The notes under the pieces were generated by a model. The model searched no databases. It was not told where the DNA came from and saw nothing but the letters and a program-made list of their open reading frames with translations. Below are positions 23,579-64,000 of a stretch of DNA of 64,000 bases, piece by piece (position 1 is the first letter of the stretch; every line of letters begins with the position of its first letter). The stretch is from Nocardiopsis sp. NRRL B-16309 (lineage in GTDB: Bacteria > Actinomycetota > Actinomycetes > Streptosporangiales > Streptosporangiaceae). A program made the translations under genes and the position numbers. The stretch lies in assembly GCF_001279585.1 (NCBI RefSeq), contig NZ_LGEC01000103.1, positions 22,925-86,924 of the forward strand, written 5' to 3'.

Positions 23579-26194
<2,616 letters not shown>

Positions 26195-26339: not shown

Positions 26340-26936
26340 ATGACCGTGATCGAAGACCACTCGCCGAGATCCCCTGCCGAGAAGCTGAGCGTCGAACAGT
26401 TCGAGATCATCGCCCAGGCCGCAGCCCGTGAGGATGTCACCCTCGAATACCTCAACGGCCAAATGGAGATCCGAACCGTGCCCGACAGCGACCACAACGC
26501 GATTCTCATGTGGTTGATGCGCCAGTTCATGACCCAGCGGGCGGACCTGGATCTGAACGTCACAGGCCAGGGCCTGAAGGTGGACTCCTACCGCAAGGGC
26601 CGCGCGCGCCCGGACGGCATCCTCGCACCTGTCGACCATTTCGCCGGCCAGGGAGAGTGGGCCGACCCCCACGGGGTCCTGGCGGTCGTGGAGGTCACCT
26701 CGTGGGACTCCGACACCAACGCCCGTGACCGGGTCGAGAAGGCACATGCCTACGCCGCCTGCTCCATCGGCGTGTACGTGCTCGTCGACCGCGACGACGA
26801 CAGTGTCACCGTCCACAGCGAGCCCGTCGGCGGCCGGTACCGCAGCATCACCAAGCTCGGCTACGGACACACGGTCGAGGTACCCGGGGTCGGGGTCACG
26901 TTGAACACCGACGGCCTCAAGCGGTACGGCCGCTAG
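26340..26936 (+). CDS. Uma2 family endonuclease (DUF820, PD-(D/E)XK-like)
   Basis: ATG follows GAAGGGG. Uma2-like core motifs are present (EYLNGQMEI; VLAVVEVTSWDSD; EKAHAYAACSIGVYVLVD). Confidence 0.75.
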   Translation: MTVIEDHSPRSPAEKLSVEQFEIIAQAAAREDVTLEYLNGQMEIRTVPDSDHNAILMWLMRQFMTQRADLDLNVTGQGLKVDSYRKGRARPDGILAPVDHFAGQGEWADPHGVLAVVEVTSWDSDTNARDRVEKAHAYAACSIGVYVLVDRDDDSVTVHSEPVGGRYRSITKLGYGHTVEVPGVGVTLNTDGLKRYGR

Positions 26937-29800: not shown

Positions 29801-30064
29801 CTCTCGTGGTGTGGGGGGGCTCGTTCTCCCCCGCTCTCACCCACACGTCGAACGGGCCCCGTCCGGATCGACACCCTCCCGGATTTTTTCTCGGAGTTTT
29901 TTCGACCGGGTCCCCGGCCGGCCCGGGACCGGTCCCTCCCGTGGCCACGCCTGGCCACAACCGGTCAACCGGACCGCCCGCCACCGAGCTGAGCTGGGGC
30001 GTTCGGTAGAGTTCCTGGGCGTTCGCCGTCGACGGCGCGGATCACAGCACGGAGGAGTACGAGG

Positions 30065-30706
30065 GTGGAGCTGTTCCTGGGTACGACCTTCGGCTTCCCC
30101 GCGGTCCTGTTCACACCCCTGCTCCTCGTGGTGGCCGTCTACTGGGTCCTCGTGCTCGTGGGCGCCACCGACAGCGAACTCCTGGACGCCGTGGACGCCG
30201 ACGGCGCCGCGTCCGGGCTGAGCGCGGTCATGCACAGGGCTCGTCTGGGCGACGTGCCGGTCACCGTCGCGCTCTCGATGCTGATCTGCTCCGCCTGGTT
30301 CGTGAGCATGATGGGAGGCATCATGACCAGTCTCCTCGACACCACCTCCACCCCCCTGCTGCTGGCCCTCGGCGCCGTCGTGCTGCTCATCGCGGTCGTC
30401 GCCGCCTGGGCGGTCACCAGCGGCCTGGTGATGGCCGTCGCCCGGTTCCTGCCGCGCCGCGGCGGCGACTCCAAGCACGAACTCGTCGGTCGCACCTGCG
30501 TGATCCGGATCGGCGAGGCCGGCGAGGACTTCGGCCAGGCCGAGATCACCACCTCCGGCGGTGCCGCGATCACCATCCCCGTGCGCACCACCGGCGGCGA
30601 GGTCCTCCCGCTGGGCAGCACCGCCCTGATCTTCGACCACCGGGCCGAGGGCGACGTCTTCCTGGTGACCCACTTCGACGCGGCCCTGGATCCCGGCCAG
30701 GGCTGA
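30065..30706 (+). CDS. NfeD-like membrane protein (YuaF-type: N-terminal TM helices + C-terminal OB-fold)
   Basis: GTG start follows GGAGGAG. Three TM helices are followed by a beta-rich C-terminus (CVIRIGEAGEDFGQAEIT...GEVLPLGSTALIFD). Lies upstream of a flotillin gene, as yuaF-floT does. Confidence 0.7.
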   Translation: MELFLGTTFGFPAVLFTPLLLVVAVYWVLVLVGATDSELLDAVDADGAASGLSAVMHRARLGDVPVTVALSMLICSAWFVSMMGGIMTSLLDTTSTPLLLALGAVVLLIAVVAAWAVTSGLVMAVARFLPRRGGDSKHELVGRTCVIRIGEAGEDFGQAEITTSGGAAITIPVRTTGGEVLPLGSTALIFDHRAEGDVFLVTHFDAALDPGQG

Positions 30707-30728
30707 CCGGACCCGCCGCCCCGCCCAG

Positions 30729-30840
30729 CGGCCCGACCCGCCCCCACCGCCCGAACCGGCGCCACTTCCCGACCCGCCCCAGCGTCCCGAGCCGGTACCA
30801 CCCGCCCGACCACTCCCACCTGCCCGAACCGGACCGTCGG
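30729..30840. repeat. about 36-bp x3 degenerate tandem repeat (CCCGACCCGCCCC...CCGAACCGG...) in the nfeD-floT intergenic region
   Basis: Three consecutive related units are seen directly: ...cccgacccgcccccaccgcccgaaccggcgccactt / cccgacccgccccagcgtcccgagccggtaccacccg / cccgaccactcccacctgcccgaaccggaccg. Confidence 0.6.
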
Positions 30841-30968
30841 CCGCGCGGAACCGTTGCGCGCCCGACGGCGTCTCATCTCCGGACGAGCCCGAAGCGGCAC
30901 CCCACCGCCCCAGCCCCGGCGCTCGCCCCCGCACCCGCACGTCCCATCTCCCAGAAAGCGACCCCTAC

Positions 30969-33032
30969 GTGTTCCTGAGTGCAACCACCACCGGGCAGGA
31001 GGCGGCGGACGCCACCTTCCTCACCTTCGGTGTCGCCCTGGCCGTCGGCCTCATCGTCCTCGTCGCGCTGGTCGTCATGATCATGCGGCTGTTCAAGAAG
31101 GTCGAGCAGGGCAAGGCCCTGATCATCTCCAAGACCCGTGACGTCCACGTCACCTTCACGGGCGCCGTCGTCCTCCCGGTCCTGCACAAGGCCGAGGTCA
31201 TGGACATCTCGCTCAAGACCCTCACCCTGGAGCGCAGCGGCCGCGAGGGCCTCACCTGCAAGGACAACATCCGCGCGGACATCCGCGTGTACTTCTACGT
31301 CCGCGTCAACGAGACCGCCGAGGACGTCAAGAAGGTCGCCAAGTCCATTGGCACCGAGCGCGCCAGCGACCGGGAGACCCTCCAGGAGCTCTTCAACTCG
31401 AAGTTCTCCGAGGCGCTGAAGACGGTCGGCAAGCAGTTCGACTTCGAGGAGCTGTTCACCCAGCGCGAGCAGTTCCGCCACGCGATCGTCTCGCTCATCG
31501 GTACCGACCTCAACGGCTACAGCCTGGAGGACGTGGCCATCGACGAGCTGGAGCAGACCCCGCTGCACCAGCACGACTCGAACAACATCCTCGACGCGCA
31601 GGGCATCAGCAAGATCACCGAGCGCACGGCGATCGAGCACAAGCGCACCAACGAGTTCGAGAACGACCGCAAGAAGGAACTCGACCGGCAGAACACCGAG
31701 ACCGCCGAGACCCTCGCCGAGCTGGAGAAGCGCCGCGAGGAGGCCGCCGCCAAGGCCAAGCGCGAGATCGAGATCATCCGCGCCCGCGAGGAGTCCGAGA
31801 CCGCCCGCGTGCAGGCCGAGGAGCGCCTCAAGGCCGAGACCGCCAACCTGCGCACCAACGAGGCCCTGGGCGTCCAGCAGCAGAACCAGCAGCGTGAGAT
31901 CGCGGTCGCCGAGAAGAACCGCGAGCGCGTCATCGCCATCGAGACCGAGCGCATCGAGAAGGACCGGATGCTGGAGGTCATCGGCCGCGAGCGAGAGACC
32001 GAGCTGAGCAGCATCGCCAAGGACAAGGAGGTCGAGGCCGAGAAGCGCGAGGTCGCCGACGTCGTCCGCGAGCGCATCGCCGTCGACCGCACCGTCGCCG
32101 AGCAGGAAGAGGCGATCAAGAGGCTGCGCGCGGTCGAGGAGGCCGAGCGCACCCGTCAGGCCATCATCATCCAGGCCGAGGCCGAGGCCCAGGAGAACCT
32201 GGTCAAGGACATCAAGGCCGCCGAGGCCGCCGAGGCCGCGGCCAAGCACCGCGCTGCCGAGGAGATGACCCTCGCCGAGGCCCGCCAGCAGGCCGCCGAA
32301 CTCGACACCCGCGCCAAGATCCGCCTGGCCGAGGGCCTGCAGGCCGAGGCCGCCGCCGCGGGCCTGGCCGAGGTCCAGGTCCGTCAGCAGGACGCCGAGG
32401 CGCTGGAGAAGATCGGCCGCGCCGAGGCCGTCGTGTCCCGCGAGAAGGCCCAGGCCGAGGCCGAGGGCATCGAGCAGAAGCTGCGCGCCGAGGCCGCCGG
32501 CCTCACCGACAAGGCGTCCGCCATGGCCGCCCTGGACCAGGTCAGCCGCGAGCACGAGGAGTACCGCCTGCGCCTGGACGCCGAGAAGGAGGTCCGCCTG
32601 GCCGGGATCGACGTGCACCGCCAGGTCGCCGAGGCCCAGGCCACCGCGATGGCCGCGGGCCTGGAGAGCGCCGACATCAGCATCGTCGGCGGCGACGGCG
32701 CCTTCTTCGACCGCATGGTCAACTCCATCGGCATGGGCAAGGCGATCGACGGCTTCGTCGGCAACTCCGACACCGTCCAGACCCTGGGCGGCAACTGGCT
32801 CAACGGCGACGCCGGTGCCAACGGCGGCGGCAACTTCACCGAGGACATCAGGCGCATCCTGGCCGACGCCGACACCGAGGACATCAAGAACCTCACGGTC
32901 TCGGCCCTGCTGCTCAAGCTGATCGCCGCGGGCGGCCAGAACAGCGGCAAGCTGGACTCGCTGCTCTCCACGGCCCGCTCCCTGGGCCTGGACCAGCTCC
33001 CCGTGACCGCCATCGCCCCCGTCAAGCAGTGA
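30969..33032 (+). CDS. flotillin family protein (SPFH/band-7 domain + long coiled-coil, FloT-like)
   Basis: N-terminal TM, then SPFH domain, then an extended E/A/R-rich heptad region. GTG start. Confidence 0.9.
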   Translation: MFLSATTTGQEAADATFLTFGVALAVGLIVLVALVVMIMRLFKKVEQGKALIISKTRDVHVTFTGAVVLPVLHKAEVMDISLKTLTLERSGREGLTCKDNIRADIRVYFYVRVNETAEDVKKVAKSIGTERASDRETLQELFNSKFSEALKTVGKQFDFEELFTQREQFRHAIVSLIGTDLNGYSLEDVAIDELEQTPLHQHDSNNILDAQGISKITERTAIEHKRTNEFENDRKKELDRQNTETAETLAELEKRREEAAAKAKREIEIIRAREESETARVQAEERLKAETANLRTNEALGVQQQNQQREIAVAEKNRERVIAIETERIEKDRMLEVIGRERETELSSIAKDKEVEAEKREVADVVRERIAVDRTVAEQEEAIKRLRAVEEAERTRQAIIIQAEAEAQENLVKDIKAAEAAEAAAKHRAAEEMTLAEARQQAAELDTRAKIRLAEGLQAEAAAAGLAEVQVRQQDAEALEKIGRAEAVVSREKAQAEAEGIEQKLRAEAAGLTDKASAMAALDQVSREHEEYRLRLDAEKEVRLAGIDVHRQVAEAQATAMAAGLESADISIVGGDGAFFDRMVNSIGMGKAIDGFVGNSDTVQTLGGNWLNGDAGANGGGNFTEDIRRILADADTEDIKNLTVSALLLKLIAAGGQNSGKLDSLLSTARSLGLDQLPVTAIAPVKQ

Positions 33033-33043
33033 GGTAGTCCCAC

Positions 33044-36000
33044 GTGACCGAGGCCCTGGAGACCGAAGCCGGGTCGGACGCCGTGGACGCGCGGTCGCTG
33101 GACGCGGGCACCTACGAGGTGCTCCGCGCCCGGCTGCGCGACCAGACCGGCGAACTGGCCCGGCGGACCGAGGCGCTCAACGACCGGCGGCTGGAGGTGT
33201 TCGGCGGGACCGAACTGGCGCTGCTCGGCACCGAGCGCATCCGCACCGAGCACAACTGCGTCCCGCGGGACATCGTGAGCGTGGGGCGGGCCGTCGGCGC
33301 CGGCGCCGACGGCGCCATGATCCTGTTCGGCTACAACGTCTTCATCGGTATGAAGCGGGAGACCCACGTCCCCGACGTGTTCTCCCTGCACCGGTACGAA
33401 CGGGACGGTGAGGGCTTCACCTTCGCCGACGCCCCCGGCGACGCCGCCCCCGGCCTGCTGGACGACGAGCGCTTCCGGCAGGACTTCGGTCAGCTCTACC
33501 GCTACTACCGCGACGCCCACCTGCTCCAGCTGCGGAAGGTGGAGGACCGGCTGCTCGCGGTGTTCCAGACCGGCCCGCGCACCGAGGACGTGCGGGTGCT
33601 GCGCTGGTCGGTCTCGCCCGCCGGCGAGGTCGCCTACCTCGACGCGCGGGGCGAGCGCGACCACGTGTTCCCACCCTCGCACGACTTCGCGTGGGTGGAG
33701 ACCACCCGCGAGGACCACGTCGCCGGGCGGCACCCGCACATCTCGATCCTCGACGAACTGTTCGTCGAGACGCTCAACGGCGACCTCACCATCAAGGTGG
33801 AGAACAACACCGAGGTCGGCGAGGGCATCTACGCCGAGCCCGTCGACGAGCCGCTGCAGAGCCTGGCCGACGCCCAGGTGCACTACGCCAGGGTGGGCGC
33901 GCTCATCCTGATGAAGGTGCTGCCCTACAACGAGACCACGTGGCGGTACCTGGTCTTCAACACGCGTACCAAGGAGGTCGAGCGGCTCGACGGCATCGGC
34001 CAGTCCTGCCAGCGCCTGCCCGACGACCAGGGGCTCATCTTCCCCGGCGGCTACTACCTGGCCACCGGCACGGCCCGGACGTTCGACACCGACGTCACCG
34101 ACCTGGAGTTCGAGCGTGTGGTGCGCTCCCCCAACGGGGAGGACGTGCTCTACGTCTTCCACTCCCGGGAGGACGGCCGCAGCCTGCTGCTGTCGTACAA
34201 CACCATCCGCAAGGAGGTCGCCAACCCGATCGTCTGCCACGGCTACTCGCTGTTCGACGACGGCACGATGACGGTGTTCCGCGACGGAACCGGCGAGCCC
34301 ACCCGGGTGCACCCGATGCAGGTGTGGCGGACCCCGTTCGTGTCCGACGTGTACGCGGCCGCGCAGCCCGCGGGAACCGGTCCGCTGGAGCGGATCGGCA
34401 ACGCCGACCTGGTGCGCGGTGTGTCGGAGTGCCTGTCCGTGGCGCGCATCGCGAGCGACATGCGGCCCTCGACCGAGGTGTTCGAGGCGCTCATCGCCTC
34501 GTGCCGCCGGGTGTCGGACCAGTTCCACTGGCTGGGCGATCCGGAACTGGGCGACCTGGCCGAGCCGCTGTCGCAGGTGCGGGCGACCGCGGAGAAGGTC
34601 CTGGAGGAGTTCGAGACCGTCCAGGCCCTGACCCGCCAGGCCGCCGAGGCCCTGGCCGAGGCCGAGTCCCGGGCGGCCTCGCTCATCCGCACCTCGCGCG
34701 GCGAGGCGCCCCGCTCGGCGGAGGGCTGGGTGGCGCGGCTGACCGAGCTGCGCCGCGCCCAGGGGCAGGCGGCCACGCTGCGCGAGATGCGCTACGTGGA
34801 CGCCGACCGGCTGGCGGACCTCGACCACCGGATGGGCGAGGAGATCGCCGCGGCGGGCCGCCGGACGGTGGCCTTCCTCGAACAGGACGACGCGTTCGCC
34901 GGATACCACTCCGAGGTCGACCGGCTGGTGGCGGACGCCGAGGCGATCGACGCGGTCACGGCCGCGACGGCCGTCGGCGAGCGCATCGCCGAGCAGACCG
35001 AGGGCCTGCAGGTGGTCACCGAGGTCATCGGGTCGCTCGACATCGGCGACGCCCAGGTGCGCACGCGCATCCTGGAGCGGATCAGCGAGGTGATGGGCGG
35101 GATCAACCGGGCCCGCGCCACGCTGGAGTCGCGGCGCAAGGAGCTGCTGGCCCTGGAGGGCCGGGCCGAGTTCGCCGCCGAGTTCTCCCTGCTCGGGCAG
35201 GCCATCACGGGGGCGCTGGCCGCCGCCGACTCCCCGGACCGGTGCGACGAGCAGCTCGGCCGGATCATGCTCCAGCTGGAGAACCTGGAGTCGCGCTTCG
35301 CCGAGTTCGACGACTTCCTCGGGGAGCTGTCGGACAAGCGGGAGGACGTCTACGAGGCGTTCTCCACCCGCAAGCAGTCGCTGGTCGACGAGCGGTCCCG
35401 GCGGGCCGACCGGCTGGCGTCGTCGGCCGCGCGGGTGCTGGAGGGCGTGCACCGGCGGGTGTCGACGCTGTCGACGCTGGAGGACATCAACACCTACTTC
35501 GCCTCCGACGCGATGGTCACCCGGCTGCGCCGCACCGTCGAGGAGATGCGCGCGCTCGGCGACACCGTGCGCGCCGAGGAGCTGGACGGGCAGATCCTGG
35601 CCGCCCGGCAGGAGGCGGGCCGGGCGCTGCGGGACCGCGCCGACCTGTTCGAGGGCGGTGCGGGCGGGGAGACCATCCGCCTCGGTCGGCACCGGTTCGC
35701 GGTCAACACCCAGCCCGTCGACCTCACGCTCACCCCGCACCAGGGGGAGATGTCGGTGGCCGTCACCGGCACCGACTTCCGGGCGCCGGTCACCGACGAG
35801 GCGTTCCAGGAGACCCGGTACCTGTGGGACCGGATGCTGGTGTCGGAGAGCGAGCGGGTGTACCGGGCCGAGTACCTGGCCACCTCGATCCTGGCCGCCG
35901 CCGAGGAGGGCGCGGACGGTTCGAGCCTGCGGGCGCTGGTCGAGGCGGACGTGCAGTCCGAGAACGGGTCGCTCCTGGACATCGTGCGCGGGGTCGCCGA

Positions 36001-38068
36001 GACCCGGTACGACGAGGGCTACGAGCGGGGCGTGCACGACCACGACGCCGCCCGGATCCTGTCCGCGCTGCTGCGGCTGCGGACCGGTGCCGGACTGCTG
36101 CGCTATCCCGGGCCCGTGCGCGCGGTGGCCCAGCTGTTCTGGGCCTACGGGACCGACGAGGACCAGCGGGCGGCCTGGCGCACCCGCGCCGGGTCGCTGG
36201 CCCGCGCGCGTGAGGTGTTCGGGGCGCGCCGGTCGGCGGCCATCGACGGCCTGCGCGGGGAGCTGGCCCGGGGCGTGGACGCGTTCCTCACCGAGACCGG
36301 GCTGTACCAGGACACCGAACTGGACCTGGTGGGCGAGTACCTCTTCGAGGAGCTGGCCGCGGACGGCCCCTCCGAGCGCGGATTCGTGTCCGGCGCGGGG
36401 GCCAGGCTGCTCCTGGACCGGTTCCACCGGGCGCTGGGCAGCGCCCAGGAGACCACGCGCCGGGCCTTCGCCGAGGACCTGCGCCGGCTCGACGGCGACG
36501 TCGCGGCGCGGCACCAGCTGGTGTCGGCGTGGCTGGAGGCGTTCGCGAGCACCCTGGAGGAGGGCTCGTTCGACGCCGGGGACCTGCCCGAGGCGGCCGT
36601 GATCGAGCTGACCGGGCCCGAGGTGGAGCGGTACGAGTCCTCGGCGGCGGTGCACGAGAGGGTGACCGGGCTGCTGGGCTCGCACCCGCGGGTGCGCGAG
36701 CGGTCGCTGGACGTGCGCCTGGACGAGATCCTGCCGCGTACCCGCGCGTTCCGGCAGCGGGACGTGCCCGCCTACCGGGACTTCCAGCGGCGGCGCAACG
36801 AGCTGGTGGCCGCCGAGCGCGAACGGCTGCGGCTGGAGGAGTACAAGCCGAAGGTGATGAGCGGGTTCGTCCGCAACCGGCTGCTGGACGAGTCGTACCT
36901 GCCGCTGATCGGCGACAACCTGGCCAAGCAGCTGGGCGCGGCCGGCGACGACAAGCGCACGGACCAGAGCGGTCTGCTGCTGCTCATCTCCCCGCCCGGG
37001 TACGGCAAGACCACGCTGATGGAGTACGTGGCGAGCCGCCTGGGCCTGGTGTTCGTGAAGGTGAACGGACCGGCGCTGGGGCACGCGGTGACCTCGCTCG
37101 ACCCGGCGGAGGCGCCGGACGCCACGTCGCGCCAGGAGGTCGAGAAGATCTCCTTCGCGCTGGAGATGGGCAGCAACACGATGCTGTACCTGGACGACAT
37201 CCAGCACACCAACCCGGAGCTGCTGCAGAAGTTCATCTCGCTCTGTGACGGCCAGCGCCGGATGGAGGGCGTGTGGGAGGGCCGCACCCGCACCTACGAC
37301 CTGCGGGGCAAGCGGTTCGCTGTGTGCATGGCCGGCAACCCCTACACCGAGCAGGGCAAGAAGTTCCGGATCCCGGACATGCTGGCCAACCGCGCCGACG
37401 TGTACAACCTGGGCGACGTGCTCTCCGGCAAGGAGGAGCTGTTCGCGCTCAGCTACATCGAGAACGCGCTCACCTCCAACCCGACCCTGTCGCCGCTGTC
37501 GTCGCGCGACCGCGAGGACGTGTACACGTTCGTGCGGATGGCGCGGGGCGACGACTCGGTCGGCACGGACGAGCTGAAGCACCCGTACTCGGCGACCGAG
37601 GTGGAGCGGATCCTGTCCGTCCTGCGCAAGCTGCTGCGGGTCCAGGAGGTGGTGCTGGCCAACAACCAGGCCTACATCGCCTCGGCCGCGCAGTCCGAGG
37701 ACGCGCGCTCGGAGCCGCCGTTCCAGCTGCAGGGGTCGTACCGGAACATGAACCGGCTGGCGGAGAAGATCGTTCCGGTGATGAACGACGCCGAGGTGGA
37801 GGCCGCGATCGACGACCACTACCTGGGCGAGGCGCAGACCCTGACCTCGGGCGCGGAGGCCAACCTGCTCAAGCTCGCCGAGCTGCGCGGGGTGATGACG
37901 CCGGAGCAGAAGACCCGGTGGGAGGAGGTCAAGGCGGGCTTCCTGCGCGGACGCGCGCTGGGCGGCTCCGAGGACGACCCGATGACCCGGGCGATCGGGG
38001 CGATGGGCCTGCTCGCCGACCGGGTCGGCTCCATCGGCTCCGCCATCGACCGCGCCGCCGAACGGTAG
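33044..38068 (+). CDS. 1674-aa multidomain protein: beta-rich N-terminal domain, about 800-aa helical middle, C-terminal MoxR/dynein-type (AAA_5-like) AAA+ ATPase
   Basis: GTG start lies 11 bp after the flotillin stop and follows GTGAGGTAG. Walker A is LLLISPPGYGKTTLMEY and Walker B is MLYLDDIQHTNPELLQKFISL. Sensor and arginine-finger regions (FAVCMAGNPYTE ... FRIPDMLANRADVYNL) match the MoxR/dynein DEINRA...NP...LPEALLDRF pattern. Confidence 0.85.
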   Translation: MTEALETEAGSDAVDARSLDAGTYEVLRARLRDQTGELARRTEALNDRRLEVFGGTELALLGTERIRTEHNCVPRDIVSVGRAVGAGADGAMILFGYNVFIGMKRETHVPDVFSLHRYERDGEGFTFADAPGDAAPGLLDDERFRQDFGQLYRYYRDAHLLQLRKVEDRLLAVFQTGPRTEDVRVLRWSVSPAGEVAYLDARGERDHVFPPSHDFAWVETTREDHVAGRHPHISILDELFVETLNGDLTIKVENNTEVGEGIYAEPVDEPLQSLADAQVHYARVGALILMKVLPYNETTWRYLVFNTRTKEVERLDGIGQSCQRLPDDQGLIFPGGYYLATGTARTFDTDVTDLEFERVVRSPNGEDVLYVFHSREDGRSLLLSYNTIRKEVANPIVCHGYSLFDDGTMTVFRDGTGEPTRVHPMQVWRTPFVSDVYAAAQPAGTGPLERIGNADLVRGVSECLSVARIASDMRPSTEVFEALIASCRRVSDQFHWLGDPELGDLAEPLSQVRATAEKVLEEFETVQALTRQAAEALAEAESRAASLIRTSRGEAPRSAEGWVARLTELRRAQGQAATLREMRYVDADRLADLDHRMGEEIAAAGRRTVAFLEQDDAFAGYHSEVDRLVADAEAIDAVTAATAVGERIAEQTEGLQVVTEVIGSLDIGDAQVRTRILERISEVMGGINRARATLESRRKELLALEGRAEFAAEFSLLGQAITGALAAADSPDRCDEQLGRIMLQLENLESRFAEFDDFLGELSDKREDVYEAFSTRKQSLVDERSRRADRLASSAARVLEGVHRRVSTLSTLEDINTYFASDAMVTRLRRTVEEMRALGDTVRAEELDGQILAARQEAGRALRDRADLFEGGAGGETIRLGRHRFAVNTQPVDLTLTPHQGEMSVAVTGTDFRAPVTDEAFQETRYLWDRMLVSESERVYRAEYLATSILAAAEEGADGSSLRALVEADVQSENGSLLDIVRGVAETRYDEGYERGVHDHDAARILSALLRLRTGAGLLRYPGPVRAVAQLFWAYGTDEDQRAAWRTRAGSLARAREVFGARRSAAIDGLRGELARGVDAFLTETGLYQDTELDLVGEYLFEELAADGPSERGFVSGAGARLLLDRFHRALGSAQETTRRAFAEDLRRLDGDVAARHQLVSAWLEAFASTLEEGSFDAGDLPEAAVIELTGPEVERYESSAAVHERVTGLLGSHPRVRERSLDVRLDEILPRTRAFRQRDVPAYRDFQRRRNELVAAERERLRLEEYKPKVMSGFVRNRLLDESYLPLIGDNLAKQLGAAGDDKRTDQSGLLLLISPPGYGKTTLMEYVASRLGLVFVKVNGPALGHAVTSLDPAEAPDATSRQEVEKISFALEMGSNTMLYLDDIQHTNPELLQKFISLCDGQRRMEGVWEGRTRTYDLRGKRFAVCMAGNPYTEQGKKFRIPDMLANRADVYNLGDVLSGKEELFALSYIENALTSNPTLSPLSSRDREDVYTFVRMARGDDSVGTDELKHPYSATEVERILSVLRKLLRVQEVVLANNQAYIASAAQSEDARSEPPFQLQGSYRNMNRLAEKIVPVMNDAEVEAAIDDHYLGEAQTLTSGAEANLLKLAELRGVMTPEQKTRWEEVKAGFLRGRALGGSEDDPMTRAIGAMGLLADRVGSIGSAIDRAAER

Positions 38069-38151
38069 CCGGACCGGGAGTCCGGGCCTCGGGGCCCGGG
38101 GGAACCGGTGGCCCCGGGGCTGCGAGAGTCCGGGGCCGGGCCCCGGACGTC

Positions 38152-38177
38152 GTGGGGCCGCCGTCCGGCGGCCCCAC
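38152..38177. terminator. bidirectional terminator hairpin GTGGGGCCGCCG-tc-CGGCGGCCCCAC between convergent genes
   Basis: Perfect 12-bp stem located between the giant ATPase stop (38068) and the SUFU gene stop (38180). Confidence 0.6.
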
Positions 38178-38179
38178 GC

Positions 38180-44731: not shown

Positions 44732-45358
44732 GCGCACGGGCCCGCGCCGGGCCCGACCTCATCCCACACTCTTCTCCGCCCGGGTCCGACCTCCTGGTCG
44801 GATCCCACGCGCCACCGCCTGCCCCGTGCGTCCCTCCGGGACGCCGTCTTCCCGCGCCAGGCCCGCGCCCGCCTGTCGCACCTCGTCCGGCCGCCCCGAC
44901 GGCCGACGCCCTCGCGGGAGCGGCATCGGCGGCGGGCACCCGCCCGCCCGGCGACACGCCGCCCTCCTCGCGCGGCACAGGGCCAGGGCGTCTTCGTACC
45001 CCCTCCCGCGCACACCACACCCCACGGGAGCCACGCCCCGGGGTGCGACACACCACATCCCCGCGTCTCGGCACGCGACACCGCACGGAGCCGACCACCA
45101 CGGGCACGGCTCCGCGCCCCGGGCCCCGGCGCGTCACACCCTCGCGCGGGCAACGGCTCCGGGCGCGGCTCCGCGCCCCCGCCTCAGACGGTTTCCGCCG
45201 CCGCGGTATCGGACCAACACCTGCAGAGCCACGGATAACATCCGAAATCGTTCCCCAAGGGCGACCTTCAGGGGTTACGGTGAATTTTCGGATGCCCCGG
45301 CACCCCCCGCTCGTCGATGGGCTCCACGTCCTCATCCATCCCTGGCCGCAGAGGACCC

Positions 45359-47533
45359 ATGCGCCCCTTGACTCCGGACGATCCCACACACCTCGGCGGG
45401 TTTCGGCTCACAGCCCACCTGGGTTCCGGTGCCCTGGGGCCGGTCTTCGCCGGTGTGCGCGAGGACGGCGTCGCGGCAGCCGTCCGGGCCGTCCGGGCGG
45501 AGGACGCGGCCGACCCCGCCTTCCACTCCCTCCTGGGCCGCGAGGCGGAGATCATCGCGCGGATCCGGAACCGCTTCGTCGTCCCCCTGCTCGGCCACGA
45601 CCTGACCGCCGCGCACCCCTGGACGGCGAGCGCGTACGTCAGCGGCCCCTCCCTGCTCGACCTCGTGCACCGGACCGGGCCCCTGCCCGCCGGCGCCCTC
45701 GCCCACATCGCGCGCGGAATGGCCGAGGCCTTGGACCACGTCCACGCCGCGGGAACGATCCACCTCGGCCTCACCCCCGCGCACGTGCTCGTCGACGCGG
45801 CCGGGCCCGTACTCGTCGACACCGGCGTCCGGCGCGCGGCCGACGGCGCCCGGATCACCTCCCCCGGGGACTCCGTGTACTGGGCGCCCGAGCACCTGCC
45901 CGGCGACCGGTCCTCCACCGCCGACGACCTCTACTCCCTGGGCGCGGTACTGGCGTTCGCCGCGACCGGGCGCGCGCCGGCCGGCACCGGGCCCGCCGCC
46001 ATCGTCGACGCGCTGCGCGCAGGGTTGGACGGGACCGCGTCCGCCCTCGCCGACGCCGTCGCCGCCTGCCTGGAGGTACGCCCCGAGCGGCGCCCCTCGG
46101 CGGCCGAACTCCTGCGGGCCCTCGGCGGCCCGCTCCCCCAGGACCCGGAGCCGTGGCTGCCGTCCCGCGCCCGCGCCCTGGTCGCACGGTTCGAGGAGGA
46201 CTCCGCCGCGGCTCTGCGGACCGCCCGTTCCGGGCAGGGGCCCGGTCGGGGACCCGCCGACGACGCCGCCGCGGGCCCGTTCGAGCCCGCCTCGCCCGGC
46301 CCCCGCCCCGAGGGCCGCCGCGCCGACCGCTCCGGGGCCACCGCCGCCTCCGGTTGCCGGGAGCATCCCGGAATCGGCGTCGGGGCCGCGAACGGCTCCG
46401 CGACCCTGTCCCCGTCCCCCGCCAGGGCTGCCGCAGCGGCCCGGCGACGGCGTGTGGCGGTGCGGATCGCGGCCGCCGCCGGAGCCGCCGCCCTGTTCGT
46501 GACCACGGGCGTGGCCCTCACCGTCACCCTGTCCTCCGAGGACGTCCTGCCCGCGGACGTCCAGGCCCCCGACTGCTCCTCCCCCGTCGGCATCGACCCG
46601 GCGCTCGTCCCCGCCGAGGAGCCCCGGACCCGCTTCAGCCCCGACGTCCCCTTCCGGCTCTCCTTCTCCCCCAACGGCTCGGTGCTGGCCGTCTCCCAGG
46701 TCGGCGGGGTCGACCTCTGGGACTGGGACCGCTCCAGCCCGCTCGCCGCGATCCCCACCGACGGCTCCGTCGTGCCGCCCAGCCCCGTCACCTTCAGTCC
46801 CAACGGCTGCGTGCTCGTCCACGGCGGGCCCGAGGGCGCCGCCGTGACCGACCTGCCCACCGGCGAGGGGACCCTCGTGGGCGGCGGGTCGGTGCACTCG
46901 GTCGCGTTCAGCCCCGACGGCGGCACCCTCGCGGTCGGGGTCGAGGGCGACCCGGACCACCGCCTCCTCCACCTGATCGACCCCGACACCGGCGAGACCG
47001 TGTCCGCGCTGGCCGGTTCGGCGCGGCTCGGCGCCCTGCGCTACTCCGCCGACGGCGGCACCCTGGTCGGCAGCGAGGACAACGCCGGGTTCGCCGTCTG
47101 GCGGCTGGACCGCCCGGGCGAGGTGTCGCTGATCGGGGACGGCTCCGGCAACGAGGCGTTCGCCGTCCTGCCCGACGGCTCCGGCGTCCTGCTCGTCCAG
47201 TCCGACCGCGTGGTCCTGGTCGACCCGGAGACGGGCGGCGTCGAGCGCGAGTTCGTTCCGCCGTCCGGGGAGGGCGTCCTGGTGGACGTGGCCTACAGCC
47301 GCTCGACCGGCCGCGTGGTGGCCGCCCGGCTGGACGCCGCGATGGGCGCCGAATCCGTGGTCGCGTGGGATCTGCGCACCGCGGAACGGATAAGCCTCGC
47401 AGGCGAGCCGCCCGCCGTGTATCCGATGGCGGTCTCGCCGTCCGGCAACCACCTGGCCGGGCTCCGCGCGGGCTCCCACGACATCGCCGTCTACGACATG
47501 GACTTCTCCCTGGTCGGCGTCCTGGCGCAGTGA
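45359..47533 (+). CDS. Ser/Thr pseudokinase fused to C-terminal WD40-like beta-propeller (paralog 1 of 4)
   Basis: Gly-loop LGSGALGPV is retained. The beta3 Lys is replaced (AAAVRAV). The catalytic loop is HLGLTPAHV (no HRD Asp) and DFG is DTG. Propeller repeats include VTFSPNGCVLV, VAFSPDGGTLAV and LRYSADGGTLVG. Confidence 0.85.
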   Translation: MRPLTPDDPTHLGGFRLTAHLGSGALGPVFAGVREDGVAAAVRAVRAEDAADPAFHSLLGREAEIIARIRNRFVVPLLGHDLTAAHPWTASAYVSGPSLLDLVHRTGPLPAGALAHIARGMAEALDHVHAAGTIHLGLTPAHVLVDAAGPVLVDTGVRRAADGARITSPGDSVYWAPEHLPGDRSSTADDLYSLGAVLAFAATGRAPAGTGPAAIVDALRAGLDGTASALADAVAACLEVRPERRPSAAELLRALGGPLPQDPEPWLPSRARALVARFEEDSAAALRTARSGQGPGRGPADDAAAGPFEPASPGPRPEGRRADRSGATAASGCREHPGIGVGAANGSATLSPSPARAAAAARRRRVAVRIAAAAGAAALFVTTGVALTVTLSSEDVLPADVQAPDCSSPVGIDPALVPAEEPRTRFSPDVPFRLSFSPNGSVLAVSQVGGVDLWDWDRSSPLAAIPTDGSVVPPSPVTFSPNGCVLVHGGPEGAAVTDLPTGEGTLVGGGSVHSVAFSPDGGTLAVGVEGDPDHRLLHLIDPDTGETVSALAGSARLGALRYSADGGTLVGSEDNAGFAVWRLDRPGEVSLIGDGSGNEAFAVLPDGSGVLLVQSDRVVLVDPETGGVEREFVPPSGEGVLVDVAYSRSTGRVVAARLDAAMGAESVVAWDLRTAERISLAGEPPAVYPMAVSPSGNHLAGLRAGSHDIAVYDMDFSLVGVLAQ

Positions 47534-59673: not shown

Positions 59674-59980
59674 GCCAATGGTTCCTTTGTCGTCGTTCGG
59701 GGGTTACGACCGCCCCGGCCTGCGGTCGCCGAGAATCAGGCGATGCGCCGTGTCCGCGAGGCTATCGCTACCGTGACAGGACGGGTACTGGCAGCCGTGG
59801 GCGAGCGGACCGCCCCGGGATCGCACTCATCGGGTTCCTCCGACCACTGCGTGGTGATGTGCGCCCCGAAGGCCGACTTCGACACCGATCACATGTTTCA
59901 CGGTGGTTGCGAGGCTACCCTTGGTGTAGCCCAGCACCCAGACACCAGCCCCCCACCAGGTGGACCGGAAAGAGAGCACC

Positions 59981-62900
59981 GTGGCGACGAGAGCGGTTCC
60001 CCGACCAGCTCGGAGCACACCCCCATCACCAGGCGACAAACCCCTGGTGATCGCGACCCCGCCGCAGATGCCGGAGAACGCTCCCGCGGGCAGCTCCGGC
60101 GCGATGATCATCATGCCGATCATCACCGGCTCGGGCTCCCTCCTCATGTCCATCACGATGGGGCACCGGCCGCTCATGATGGTGGCGGGAGTGATGATCA
60201 TGGCGGCGAGCGTGATCGTCGGCATCATCATGTTCGTCGCGCAGCACAACGGCCCCCGCAAGCGCATCCGCGAACAGCGGGAGCGCTACGTCGACTACCT
60301 CGACCAGCTGCGGGAGATCGTCCGCGAGGTCGCCGCCACCCAGCGCGCCGACAGCGCCTTCCGGCACCCCGCCCCGGACCTGCTCACGGAGCCGGCCCGG
60401 TCCCCGGCGCGCAGGTGGGAGCGCCGCGCCTCCGACCCCGACTTCCTCGACGTCCGCGTGGGATCGGGCGTCCGCCCCCTGGCCAGGCGCCTGGTGCTCA
60501 AGGTGGACACCTCCTCCCCCCTGATCGTCTACGACCCCGTCTGCCAGGGATCGGCCGACCAGCTCATCGAGCTGTACGCGGACGTGCCCGAGATGCCGTT
60601 GGTCGTCCCGTTGACCCGGCACAGCGTGATCTCGATCGTCGGCGACCGCGACGCCGGCCGCGGACTGGTGCGCGCGATGATCGCGCAGCTGGCGGTCTTC
60701 CACTCCCCGCACGACCTGCGCATCGGTGTGGTCCGCGACCACAAGGTCCGCACGCTGTGGGAGTGGCTCAAATGGCTCCCCCACAACGGCTTCGAGGACG
60801 CCAAGGACGGGCCGATGCCCGCCCGTTTCGTCTCGGGCAACACTGTCCAGGTCGCCGAACTGCTCGCCGACGAGATCGAACGGCGCACGGTCGACCTGCA
60901 GCGCCGCCGGGGCAAGCCCCCCGGCCCGGGAACGCAGCGGCTCGTCGTGGTCCTGGACGGCGAGCACCAGTCGACCCTGTCGGGTCTGCACGCCGAGCCG
61001 CCCGTCACCGACCTGGCGAGCCTCGGCATCCACGTCATCACACTGGTCGCGGACCGGCGTGAGGAGCCCGAGTCCGTGAGCCTGCGGCTCATGGTCCAGG
61101 CCGACGGAACGCTCACCGAGGACACGGAGAACCCCGGAGCCCGTGAGGACGCCGCCCACGCGCCCCTGTCCGGCACCGCGGACCGGGCGGGTGTCGCCCA
61201 TCTGACGATGCTCGCGCGCCTGCTCGCCCCGTACGGCATCTCGGTCACCGACGGCGACGGCGCCATGCACGAGACCGTCGGTCTTCCGGAGATCCTGGGC
61301 GTGCCCGACGTCGCCGAACTGGACACACGCCGGACCTGGCGCAGGCGCAGCACGGGCGACTACCTGCGGGTGCCCATCGGTGTGGGCCCCAGCGGCAACA
61401 CGGTGCTGCTGGACCTGAAGGAGTCGGCGTTCGGCGGCATGGGACCGCACGGCCTGGTGGTCGGAGCGACGGGTTCCGGCAAGTCGGAGATGCTGCGCAC
61501 CATGGTGGCGTCCCTGGTGATCAACCACTCCCCCGAGCACCTGGCCCTGCTCCTGGTGGACTTCAAGGGCGGAGCGACCTTCGCCGACACCGACCGGCTC
61601 CCGCACAGCGCCGGGCTGATCACCAACCTGGCCGACGACGACTCGCTGGTCGTCCGGTTCCGCGAGGCGACCTTCGGCGAGCTGGTCCGGCGCCAGCAGC
61701 TCCTCAAGGAGGCGGGCAACCTGCCCAACCTGCACGCCTACGAGGCGGCGCGGGAGAGCAACCCCGCGCTGGAGCCGCTGCCGCACCTGCTCATCATCAT
61801 CGACGAGTTCTCCGAACTGCTGACCGCCCACCCGGACTTCGCGGAGCTGTTCGTGGCGATCGGCCGCATCGGCCGGTCGATCGGTGTGCACCTGCTGCTG
61901 GCGACCCAGCGCCTGGAGTCGGGCAAGATCAAGGGCCTGGAGTCCCACCTGTCCTACCGGGTGGGTCTGCGCACGTTCTCCGAGGCCGAGAGCCGGGAGG
62001 CGATCGGCGTCGGCGACGCCTACCACCTGCCCCCCGAACCGGGTTCCGGCTACCTCAAGGTGGACACGTCCGTCTTCGAGCGCTTCAAGGCCGCCATGGT
62101 CTCCCAGCCCTACGTCCCGCCCGCCAAGGAGGAGAAGGAGGAGCACGAGCCGGTTCTGCCGCTGCTCTCCTTCAACGGCCTGGCCAAGGTGACGGGCGCG
62201 GACTCGCTCGCCGAGTCCCTCATGGGGGCGATCAAGGACAAGTCGCAGGAGAAGCAGAAGACGGAGAAGCGCACCACCCTCCAGGTCACCGTGGACCGGC
62301 TGGTGGCCTCGGGAGCCGACCCGGTGCGCCCGGTCTGGCTCCCCCCGCTCCCGGAGGCGCTGACCTTCGACTCCGTCCTGAACGATCTCGGGGAGGGCGG
62401 CGACGCCCTGGAGGGCCGGGGGACGGAGCCGCACCCGGCCGAGGCCAAGGCCGTCTTCGGACTCACCGACATCCCCCGCGAACAGCGCGTGGTACCCGCC
62501 GAGATGGACTTCACCGGCGGCGAGGGCAACGTCGTCATCCTGGGCGGCCCCCAGTCCGGCAAGTCCACCCTGCTGCGGACGATGATCACGAGCCTGGCGT
62601 GGCGGTACCCGCCCGGACGGGTCGCGGTGTACGCGATCGACTTCGGCGGCGGCGCGCTCCAGGCGATGGACGAACTCCCGCACGTGGCCGGCGTCGCCGG
62701 CCGGGCGGACCCGGAGCGCGTCCAGCGGATCCTCACCGACGTGGCGGGGCACCTGGACCGGCGCCAGCGCGTGTTCAGGAAGCACAAGCTGGACTCCCCG
62801 GCGGCACTGCGCCAGGCCCGGGCGGACGGCAGGGTGCCGTCCAGCGTCGTGGGCGACCTGTTCCTGATGATCGACGGGTGGTCGGCGGTCCGCGACGCCT

Positions 62901-64000
62901 TCGACGCGGCCGACGACTTCCTGATGGACATCGCGACGCGCGGGCCGTCCCTGGGCGTGCACACCATCCTCACCGGCGCGGCGTCGTCGCAGGTGAGATC
63001 CAGGTTGCAGGCCCTGTTCGGCGGCCGTTTCGAGCTGAGGCTGAGCGACCCGATGGACTCGGGCATCGGCCGCAAGATCGCCGAGGAAATCCCCAAGGAC
63101 ACCCCGGGCCGCGGTCTGTCCTCCAGCGAGAACCACACTCACGTGGCCCTGCCCAGGGTGGACGGCATCGCCGACGACGAGGACCTCACCAGCGGCATCC
63201 ACGACCTCATCGCCCGGGTCAAGGAGCGCTGGCCGCAGGAGGCCGTCCAGGGCGTTCGGACCCTCCCGCTCAAGGTGGAGCTGGACGACCTCCTCAAGGG
63301 ACGCAAGGGCGCCAAGGGCAGGTCCCGGGAGCTGGTCCTGGGCATGGGCGAGAGCTCGCTCGCCCCGGTCACCACCAACCTGTCGCGGGACCCGCACCTG
63401 GTGGTCTTCGGCGACCCGCAGTCCGGCAAGTCCACGCTGCTGCGCGGGCTGGTCAAGCAGATCGTCCAGCGCCCCGCCAAGGAGCTGGGGATCGTCATGG
63501 TCGACTTCCGGCGCTCCCACCTGGAGCTGGTACCGGAGGACCACCTGCTGGCCTACTGCACGACGGCGGAACAGACCAAGGCTGTCGCGGACAACCTGGC
63601 GGGTTCGCTCAAGCAGCGCCTTCCGGGGCCGGACGTGACGCCGAAGCAACTGCGGGAGCGCAGCTGGTGGCAGGGCCTGGACCTGTACATCGTCGTGGAC
63701 GACATGGACATGATCGCCTCGCGCACCAACCCGCTCGCGCCGCTGGCCCCCTTCATTCCGCAGGGCGCCGACCTGGGGCTGCACGTCATCGCCGCGCGCC
63801 GCACGGGCGGTACCGCGCGGGCGATGTTCGAGCCGGTGCTCCAGTCGCTGAGCGACATGGCCACGCCGGGCATGCTGTTCTCCGGTGACCGCATGGAGGG
63901 GCGGCTGGCCAACGGGACGGCCTCCAAACCGCTCCCGCAGGGCCGCGCACAGCTGGCTCTGCGGGGCAAGCGCCCGGACCTGGTACAGGTCGGCTGGAGC
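59981..64000 (+). CDS. eccC: type VII secretion system ATPase EccC (FtsK/SpoIIIE family, three P-loop domains), 3'-truncated by window end
   Basis: Frame 2 is open from 59930 to the window end. N-terminal PPQMPENAPAGS motif and two TM segments, then three Walker A motifs (GATGSGKSEMLRTMV, GGPQSGKSTLLRTMI, GDPQSGKSTLLRGLV). The start is estimated at GTG 59981; GTG 59960 and ATG 60068 are alternatives. It is absent from the ORF track because no stop occurs in the window. Confidence 0.9.
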   Translation, partial: MATRAVPRPARSTPPSPGDKPLVIATPPQMPENAPAGSSGAMIIMPIITGSGSLLMSITMGHRPLMMVAGVMIMAASVIVGIIMFVAQHNGPRKRIREQRERYVDYLDQLREIVREVAATQRADSAFRHPAPDLLTEPARSPARRWERRASDPDFLDVRVGSGVRPLARRLVLKVDTSSPLIVYDPVCQGSADQLIELYADVPEMPLVVPLTRHSVISIVGDRDAGRGLVRAMIAQLAVFHSPHDLRIGVVRDHKVRTLWEWLKWLPHNGFEDAKDGPMPARFVSGNTVQVAELLADEIERRTVDLQRRRGKPPGPGTQRLVVVLDGEHQSTLSGLHAEPPVTDLASLGIHVITLVADRREEPESVSLRLMVQADGTLTEDTENPGAREDAAHAPLSGTADRAGVAHLTMLARLLAPYGISVTDGDGAMHETVGLPEILGVPDVAELDTRRTWRRRSTGDYLRVPIGVGPSGNTVLLDLKESAFGGMGPHGLVVGATGSGKSEMLRTMVASLVINHSPEHLALLLVDFKGGATFADTDRLPHSAGLITNLADDDSLVVRFREATFGELVRRQQLLKEAGNLPNLHAYEAARESNPALEPLPHLLIIIDEFSELLTAHPDFAELFVAIGRIGRSIGVHLLLATQRLESGKIKGLESHLSYRVGLRTFSEAESREAIGVGDAYHLPPEPGSGYLKVDTSVFERFKAAMVSQPYVPPAKEEKEEHEPVLPLLSFNGLAKVTGADSLAESLMGAIKDKSQEKQKTEKRTTLQVTVDRLVASGADPVRPVWLPPLPEALTFDSVLNDLGEGGDALEGRGTEPHPAEAKAVFGLTDIPREQRVVPAEMDFTGGEGNVVILGGPQSGKSTLLRTMITSLAWRYPPGRVAVYAIDFGGGALQAMDELPHVAGVAGRADPERVQRILTDVAGHLDRRQRVFRKHKLDSPAALRQARADGRVPSSVVGDLFLMIDGWSAVRDAFDAADDFLMDIATRGPSLGVHTILTGAASSQVRSRLQALFGGRFELRLSDPMDSGIGRKIAEEIPKDTPGRGLSSSENHTHVALPRVDGIADDEDLTSGIHDLIARVKERWPQEAVQGVRTLPLKVELDDLLKGRKGAKGRSRELVLGMGESSLAPVTTNLSRDPHLVVFGDPQSGKSTLLRGLVKQIVQRPAKELGIVMVDFRRSHLELVPEDHLLAYCTTAEQTKAVADNLAGSLKQRLPGPDVTPKQLRERSWWQGLDLYIVVDDMDMIASRTNPLAPLAPFIPQGADLGLHVIAARRTGGTARAMFEPVLQSLSDMATPGMLFSGDRMEGRLANGTASKPLPQGRAQLALRGKRPDLVQVGWS

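Follow-up and report, generated by a model that had tools for sequence, protein, structure and literature searches.

A flotillin operon with a giant DUF3686-family AAA+ ATPase in Nocardiopsis and its possible role in membrane stress

Three consecutive genes in a 64-kb stretch of DNA from Nocardiopsis sp. NRRL B-16309 (72% GC; "the window" hereafter means this whole stretch) encode a small membrane protein, a flotillin-family protein and a giant DUF3686-family AAA+ ATPase (genes 1, 2 and 3, Table 1), and almost certainly form one functional unit, an operon. At every related locus that included upstream DNA (77 of 77), the ATPase gene is immediately preceded by a flotillin gene of the same orientation. 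This architecture had been catalogued before, through the Pfam families DUF3686 and DUF7902 and by Ravi et al. (mSystems 2024, PMC11237479). The operon is widespread, and the window has an ordinary orthologue of it. Our additions to the catalogue are a high-confidence model of the N-terminal head of the ATPase, the linkage count, and a probable tie to the bac/psp operon of Pseudomonas aeruginosa, which is under experimental study.

Conservation and linkage of the three genes

Relatives were detected in at least 600 species by a scan of one genome per species, and the best 80 loci were inspected. These were mostly from Actinomycetota, together with Myxococcus, Corallococcus and metagenome-assembled genomes (MAGs) assigned to Deltaproteobacteria, Proteobacteria and Clostridia. 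At 63 loci the flotillin gene has a detected gene 1 homologue ahead of it, and the whole trio is kept in homologues of 27–29% identity from metagenome assemblies, where the three products have 212, 647 and 1627 amino acids (aa) in one case and 206, 651 and 1649 aa in another. An initial annotation, made from the sequence alone, had allowed that the flotillin and ATPase genes might be adjacent by chance; this is refuted by the unbroken linkage, seen in several phyla and in homologues down to 27% identity.

The ATPase family comprises 895 clusters at 50% clustering, with full-length members of 1600–1900 aa. Flotillin and ATPase identities run in parallel (69/68, 55/55 and 48/53%; r = 0.89 over 77 loci). 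An exception to the linkage is a stand-alone protein of 1040 aa (locus L087, 8001–11123), which has DUF3686 and DUF7902, no AAA+ domain and no flotillin neighbour, and which may be a decayed or repurposed paralogue. It is encoded among Por-secretion-tail proteins and adjoins an integrase.

No neighbour beyond the trio was common across genera in the 80 loci. A PucR-type regulator does recur upstream of the operon in 29 loci, mostly in Streptomyces and on the opposite strand in 25 of the 29, making it a candidate local regulator of the operon. The regulator (for example L035, 2939–4156) has GGDEF_2 and HTH_30 domains; in its place, the window has the divergent ECF sigma/YCII pair of Table 1. 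At another locus (L082, 13001–15009), a TelA gene and a gene for a 257-aa protein lie downstream of the ATPase gene as a lineage-specific addition.

Gene structure and intergenic regions

The three open reading frames (ORFs) lie exactly where the initial annotation had placed them, and their third-position GC of 0.91–0.98 in a 72% GC genome identifies them as real genes. A broken gene 3 frame had been considered beforehand; the frame is intact and its product is 100% identical to the protein recorded for Nocardiopsis sp. NRRL B-16309 under the name "DNA repair ATPase", whilst the gene 1 product is identical to the same strain's "OB-fold-containing protein". The NCBI record of gene 3 has 1670 aa and starts at a CTG (33056), four codons after the GTG at 33044. 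The GTG, with a GAGG 9 nucleotides (nt) upstream, looks to be the better start.

The junction between genes 2 and 3 reads cag-TGA-ggtagtcccac-GTG, with the GAGG overlapping the flotillin stop codon. Co-translation of the two genes had been called almost certain beforehand; the short gap and the placement of the GAGG make translational coupling likely in the window, though it is no family rule. Among 78 relatives, the junction is an overlap (−4, −8 or −1) or a gap of 4–11 nt in many genera, and 40–260 nt (up to 494) in Streptomyces, hence coupling is not universal.

The spacer between genes 1 and 2 contains three tandem copies of about 36 nt each (30732, 30768 and 30805) and a 13-bp hairpin (arms at 30834–30846 and 30856–30868). 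The flotillin frame is open from 30669, with no ATG, GTG or TTG until 30969. In most other genera this spacer is short or absent, the gap between the two genes being −4 to about 25 nt in many. The window spacer could be an intra-operon attenuator or a processing site, and the inverted repeats beyond gene 3, located between convergent genes, are a possible transcription end for the operon. A scan of the high-GC window DNA for consensus promoters and terminators gave nothing useful and found no terminator. Upstream of gene 1, the divergent intergenic region contains a T-rich tract, GGATTTTTTCTCGGAGTTTTTTCG, at 29873–29900, which is unusual at 72% GC, and two copies of GGGCGTTCG, at 29997 and 30017, form a direct repeat shortly before the gene 1 start. 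The tract and repeats may be promoter or operator elements.

Table 1. Positions of the operon, its parts and nearby genes in the window (position 1 is the first letter of the window).
Feature	Position	Strand	Basis or remark
ClpB disaggregase gene	23579–26194		4–6 kb upstream of the operon, with the Uma2 gene
Uma2-family endonuclease-like gene	26340–26936		4–6 kb upstream of the operon, with the ClpB gene
Divergent pair, extracytoplasmic function (ECF) sigma factor (DUF6596) and YCII	28065–29800		
Gene 1, 213-aa membrane protein	30065–30706	+	ORF and translation
Intra-operon spacer, 262 bp, C-rich	30707–30968	+	Sequence
Gene 2, 687-aa flotillin-family protein	30969–33032	+	Band_7 and YqiK match
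Flotillin stop TGA (33030–33032), 11-nt gap and Shine-Dalgarno-like GAGG (33031–33034)	33030–33043	+	Sequence
Gene 3, 1674-aa DUF3686-family cytosolic protein ("DNA repair ATPase" in NCBI)	33044–38068	+	ORF, Pfam
N-terminal module of gene 3 product, aa 14–519	33083–34600	+	AlphaFold model, Pfam DUF3686
DUF7902	34889–35143	+	Pfam; sits in the helical middle region of ~830 aa (aa ~430–1260)
Single AAA+ core, aa ~1300–1460	36941–37423	+	Pfam, motifs
Walker A, SPPGYGKTT, aa 1316–1324	36989–37015	+	
Walker B, LYLDDIQH, aa 1381–1388	37184–37207	+	
Sensor-1/Arg-finger region, MAGNPYTEQGKKFRIPDMLANRAD	37328–37399	+	NP...RAD stretch, aa 1432–1452
C-terminal ~215 aa, presumed lid and family-specific tail	37424–38065	+	
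GC-rich inverted repeats between convergent genes	38086–38178	.	Possible transcription end

The giant ATPase

The gene 3 protein had been described as having three parts, and this layout stood up to analysis: a beta-rich head (aa 59–429 in the model) is followed by a helical middle region in which Ala, Arg, Glu and Leu make up 48% of residues, and then by a C-terminal AAA+ module. Pfam DUF3686 (PF12458) covers aa 37–495 (E = 3.4e-218, profile positions 1–448 of 448) and DUF7902 (PF25472) covers aa 616–700 (E = 2e-30, positions 1–85 of 85). The AAA+ profile match that the initial annotation had made decisive for its reading was found twice above the gathering score, with AAA_5 at aa 1312–1438 (E ~8e-8, 32.8 bits vs a gathering score of 22, 127 of 139 profile positions) and AAA (PF00004) in second place (E = 2e-6, 26.9 bits vs 21.2). 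More than 6600 homologues have the same Pfam set. There is one P-loop module only, and a Pfam scan of aa 501–1300 alone returned only DUF7902. The protein is without a hydrophobic segment, hence it is taken to be cytosolic.

Membership of the AAA+ superfamily is apparent from PPGYGKTT, LYLDD, N1432 (sensor 1), R1450 (Arg finger) and the profile match, the Arg-finger and sensor-2 assignments being by position only. The predicted Walker A, Walker B and NP...RAD motifs are all present, the NP...RAD stretch as MAGNPYTE..F.IPDMLANRAD; neither they nor QGSYRNM vary among 20 homologues with identities as low as 32%. As all of the ATPase motifs are invariant, the ATPase is probably active. Further invariant motifs in the C-terminal region are EPPFxLQGSYRNM, with a sensor-2-like Arg1567 (37730–37750), and DHYxGEAQTL, and this region of about 215 aa is presumed to be a lid with sensor 2. 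The C-terminal 430 aa are the best-conserved part of the protein, with 50–56% identity where the N-terminal 700 aa have 27–29%. The ATPases from outside Actinomycetota (Myxococcus, Corallococcus and the deltaproteobacterial, proteobacterial and Clostridia MAGs; L046, L062, L068, L069 and L074) have 130–220 extra C-terminal residues.

A profile search of the PDB with the C-terminal region matched Rix7, NVL and p97, which are classical AAA proteins, and RuvB, in the P-loop region only. The earlier assignment to a MoxR/dynein type was therefore right in so far as AAA_5 is the best Pfam match, but too specific, given one module, no VWA partner noted and PDB matches to classical AAA proteins and RuvB.

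The head was modelled with AlphaFold2 as aa 1–520, using 52 diverse homologues (predicted local distance difference test score, pLDDT, 91.9; predicted template modelling score, pTM, 0.90). In the model, a long helix (aa 14–53) and the helices of aa 435–519 form a helical bundle round a propeller-like, all-beta domain of about 28 strands. Foldseek searches of the PDB with the head returned beta-propellers only (Ski8, LRRK2 WD40, DCAF1, paraoxonase and tricorn), with E values near 1e-6 and low template modelling scores of 0.2–0.37. The modelled head is thus a divergent, beta-propeller-like domain and, as these scores are so low, far from any solved structure.

The flotillin and the small membrane protein

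Gene 2 was correctly identified as a flotillin from the start. Its product has a single N-terminal transmembrane segment (aa 12–47, by hydropathy), an SPFH/Band_7 domain (aa 44–195; Pfam Band_7 E = 5e-7, 30.3 bits vs a gathering score of 23.6), a charged helical region (aa ~216–565, 63% Ala, Arg, Glu, Lys and Gln) and a conserved C-terminal region (aa 566–687) with the motif GGDGAFFDR. The N-terminal anchor, Band_7/SPFH domain and long Glu/Ala-rich helical region are those of a flotillin, and Escherichia coli YqiK is matched by BLASTP with E = 6e-32 and 27% identity over 427 aa. Assignment as a FloT equivalog was rejected (24.7 bits vs a cut-off of 700). Identity of the flotillin across actinomycete orders is 62–69%. 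Sequence and profile searches of the PDB with the flotillin gave no match, for which the biased helical region is the probable reason.

The gene 1 protein has hydrophobic segments at aa 3–40, 61–91 and 90–129 (hydropathy), an acidic loop and a conserved, beta-rich soluble C-terminal domain. It had been called NfeD-like. Neither it nor any of 30 homologues matched the Pfam NfeD or YqiJ families, and a PDB profile search with the protein found nothing. An hhalign comparison with E. coli YqiJ was colinear and weak (probability 28%, E = 6e-4), and other annotators have named homologues DUF1449, YqiJ family or OB-fold-containing protein. AlphaFold modelling from the single sequence gave a pLDDT of 51.7, too low for the fold to be recognised. 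The position of gene 1 directly upstream of an SPFH gene and the transmembrane layout of its product fit NfeD/YqiJ partners. What stands of the first assignment is hence a weak YqiJ resemblance and the annotators' names, and it is plausible that the gene 1 protein is a YqiJ/DUF1449-like flotillin partner of the "short NfeD" type.

Association with PspA and published operons

In the Bacteroidota Flavobacterium litorale and Sphingobacterium deserti, the gene order is CesT_Tir, PspA, small protein, flotillin and DUF3686 ATPase, with lineage-specific additions: a 586-aa coiled-coil protein encoded between flotillin and ATPase in the former (L085, 7228–8988) and a DUF4177 gene after PspA in the latter (L088, 4863–5057). 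In the gammaproteobacterium Agaribacterium, a divergent DUF2170–PspA pair lies beside the trio. The ATPases of all three genera have DUF3686, DUF7902 and AAA, and the PspA-linked flotillins of Flavobacterium and Agaribacterium are 42–46% identical to the window flotillin over the full length.

An operon of YqiJ/YuaF, a Band-7/flotillin protein and an ATPase with beta-propeller, coiled-coil and AAA+ regions was described by Ravi et al., who inferred ATP-dependent membrane dynamics for it and discussed Band-7 proteins and their partners as chaperone-like (PMC11237479). Our equation of that ATPase with DUF3686 rests on Bacteroidota loci other than Dokdonia, the genus of the published prototype.

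A second, probable counterpart in the literature is the bacABCDEF operon of P. aeruginosa (PA3732–PA3727), known as the "biofilm-associated cluster" or as a Psp-like operon. BacA is a DUF2170 (CesT-like) protein, BacB is PspA-like, BacC is a short NfeD, BacD is the SPFH protein PaFlo3 and BacE (PA3728) is annotated "ATPase". Reverse transcription PCR (RT-PCR) showed co-transcription over every junction, including BacD–BacE; the operon is reported to be sigma-54 dependent, its products all accumulate in a bacA mutant and PA3728–PA3732 rise on phage infection. Translation of the primers used for the published RT-PCR gives EGDFFN, PKNNCI and IKVMDR. These resemble, respectively, GGDGAFFDR (flotillin aa 575), RTENNC (ATPase aa ~70; RTENNCIARD in Agaribacterium) and IVPVMND (ATPase aa 1577), and the primer product sizes fit the positions of the motifs, making BacE a probable DUF3686 protein.

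Possible roles of the operon

PspA is a membrane-repair protein of the ESCRT-III superfamily, and Vps4 recycles ESCRT-III polymers. To our knowledge, no energy source is known for the building, opening and recycling of bacterial SPFH/flotillin assemblies, and a soluble AAA+ ATPase that at least 600 species keep genetically tied to a flotillin would be an obvious candidate. The species with the operon include antibiotic-producing actinomycetes and probably P. aeruginosa. We think it somewhat probable that the operon serves membrane-stress handling. Our preferred explanation taken as a whole, a membrane-stress module in which the ATPase remodels flotillin/PspA assemblies, has in our judgement an even chance of being correct. 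The flotillin is a scaffold anchored by one N-terminal transmembrane helix, and the gene 1 protein would be its small YqiJ-type membrane partner. The propeller head would dock on the flotillin assembly, which faces the cytoplasm, or on PspA in lineages that have it in the operon, and the AAA+ module, probably as a ring, would use ATP to assemble, open or dismantle oligomers at the damaged membrane during envelope stress, in a manner analogous to that of Vps4 on ESCRT-III polymers. The PspA-less form in the window would act on the flotillin itself or together with a PspA whose gene lies elsewhere. The initial annotation had suggested an energy-driven membrane machine, which is in line with the PspA association and with what Ravi et al. 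concluded (PMC11237479).

That the ATPase directly remodels the scaffold is a tentative proposal, which we rate as somewhat improbable. We are more doubtful of its strongest form, according to which the DUF3686 protein would be the first ATP-driven remodeller dedicated to a flotillin/SPFH assembly in bacteria and a functional counterpart of Vps4/ESCRT-III, its propeller head recognising the flotillin cage (or a PspA polymer) and its AAA+ ring opening or recycling this without threading. Several points weigh against remodelling by the ATPase. Docking of the propeller on the flotillin is pure inference, and BacE is equated with DUF3686 from primer sequences and an annotation word. PspA was not found by tblastn in the 64-kb window nor within 7 kb of the operon in the 80 closest loci, hence the PspA link is indirect for the window. 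The correlation between flotillin and ATPase identities was rejected as proof of co-evolution, as shared phylogeny explains it. The Walker B motif has DD in place of DE, and a reading of the sequence between Walker A and Walker B showed no aromatic pore-loop motif; a Vps4-like threading mechanism is therefore not indicated, and both features favour a MoxR- or RuvB-like conformational mechanism over that of a threading unfoldase. Searches of the accessible literature turned up no experiment on this ATPase, whatever the organism.

The lack of an aromatic pore loop also fits a different role, that of a MoxR-like chaperone or cargo handler. With the flotillin microdomain as its platform, the ATPase would mature, insert or extract another client protein and would leave the scaffold itself unremodelled. 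In Pfam, AAA_5 matches best, the pattern NP..E.G..F.IP..L.NR follows that of MoxR proteins, beta-propellers typically serve to bind clients or partners, and the published discussion of Band-7 proteins and their partners as chaperone-like points the same way (PMC11237479). However, no fourth gene for a client or VWA-type adaptor is conserved across genera, and at 1674 residues with family-specific domains, the ATPase far exceeds the ~300–350 residues of MoxR proteins. We consider this role unlikely. An anti-phage defence of the abortive-infection type, sensing infection at the membrane, would suit a large nucleoside triphosphatase with a propeller sensor domain and membrane-protein neighbours. 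The rise of PA3728–PA3732 in phage-infected P. aeruginosa and the origin of Psp systems as "phage shock" responses are in keeping with this. However, PADLOC gave just two IetA matches at the level of the P-loop (E = 0.003–0.009, ~30 residues), and Pfam showed none of the three proteins to have an effector domain of the nuclease, protease or toxin type. Identities track taxonomy and there are no mobile-element neighbours, so the trio looks like a vertically inherited, housekeeping stress module, and defence is very improbable.

Least probable of all, and in our view barely credible, is the role implied by the name "DNA repair ATPase", which is used by NCBI, UniProt and Pfam. There are weak matches to RuvB_N and RuvB (E = 2e-4 to 7e-4), but the similarity covers about 45 residues round the P-loop and reaches 20 bits vs family cut-offs of 282–299. 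Pfam searches turned up no domain for DNA binding and no nuclease or helicase domain, and the invariable partners of the ATPase are membrane proteins. The initial annotation had already seen no motif in support of the name, and rightly, since just the P-loop region resembles RuvB; this weak resemblance is probably where the name comes from. The database name is misleading.

Surrounding genes

The genes on either side are unrelated to the operon. Upstream are the ClpB and Uma2 genes, an epimerase gene and the divergent ECF sigma/YCII pair; downstream are a convergent SUFU-like gene and an acyl-CoA dehydrogenase gene. The ClpB/Uma2 neighbourhood is not kept in other genera. Further along the window, a gene at 45317–47533, also unrelated to the operon, encodes a fusion of a Ser/Thr protein kinase with WD40 beta-propeller repeats, and a frame on the forward strand at 59930–64000 is open for at least 1357 codons with high third-position GC and runs past the window end.

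Comparison with known systems

MoxR proteins have about 300–350 residues and usually a partner gene for a VWA-domain protein. The gene 3 protein is like MoxR and other AAA_5 proteins in its best Pfam match and in a sensor-1 region that fits NP..E.G..[FY].[IL]P...L.[DN]R, but differs from MoxR, dynein and midasin in having a single module in 1674 aa, no VWA partner and no six-fold concatenation. Assignment to the MoxR family was rejected on account of the size and large extra domains, the lack of an AAA_3 match and of a conserved fourth gene, and assignment to the dynein/midasin type on account of one AAA module vs six concatenated.

With Vps4/ESCRT-III and the AAA+ partners of PspA/Vipp1, the trio shares the genomic coupling of an AAA+ ATPase to a membrane-remodelling polymer, and in some lineages the trio is itself in an operon with PspA, a member of the ESCRT-III superfamily. 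Unlike Vps4, the gene 3 protein has no MIT domain, no classical-clade module and no aromatic pore loop, and its Walker B is DD. The Vps4 comparison is thus a working analogy, with no suggested homology beyond AAA+.

A further comparison is with E. coli yqiJK and Bacillus subtilis yuaFG (floT), each a pair of an NfeD-type partner and a flotillin, where a small multi-transmembrane protein is likewise followed by a flotillin with an N-terminal transmembrane segment; the C-terminal domain of that small protein is of the OB type. In yqiJK, however, there is no AAA+ gene downstream, and YqiK has 553 aa vs 687 aa for the window flotillin, to which it is 27% identical. The P. aeruginosa bacABCDEF operon does have the "ATPase" gene after its short NfeD and SPFH genes, but differs from the window in having six genes, including PspA and a sixth gene, and its published phenotypes are those of bacA and bacB rather than of the ATPase.

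The closest match is the operon of Ravi et al., which agrees with that of the window in its three proteins, their order and their domain architecture. Its prototype, from Dokdonia donghaensis, lies next to CesT/Tir and PspA, whereas the window has neither, and classification of the window operon as a PspA-centred Psp operon was rejected for want of a PspA gene. Judged from gene content, the window operon is the PspA-less, "abbreviated" form, which is the more widely distributed of the two (PMC11237479).

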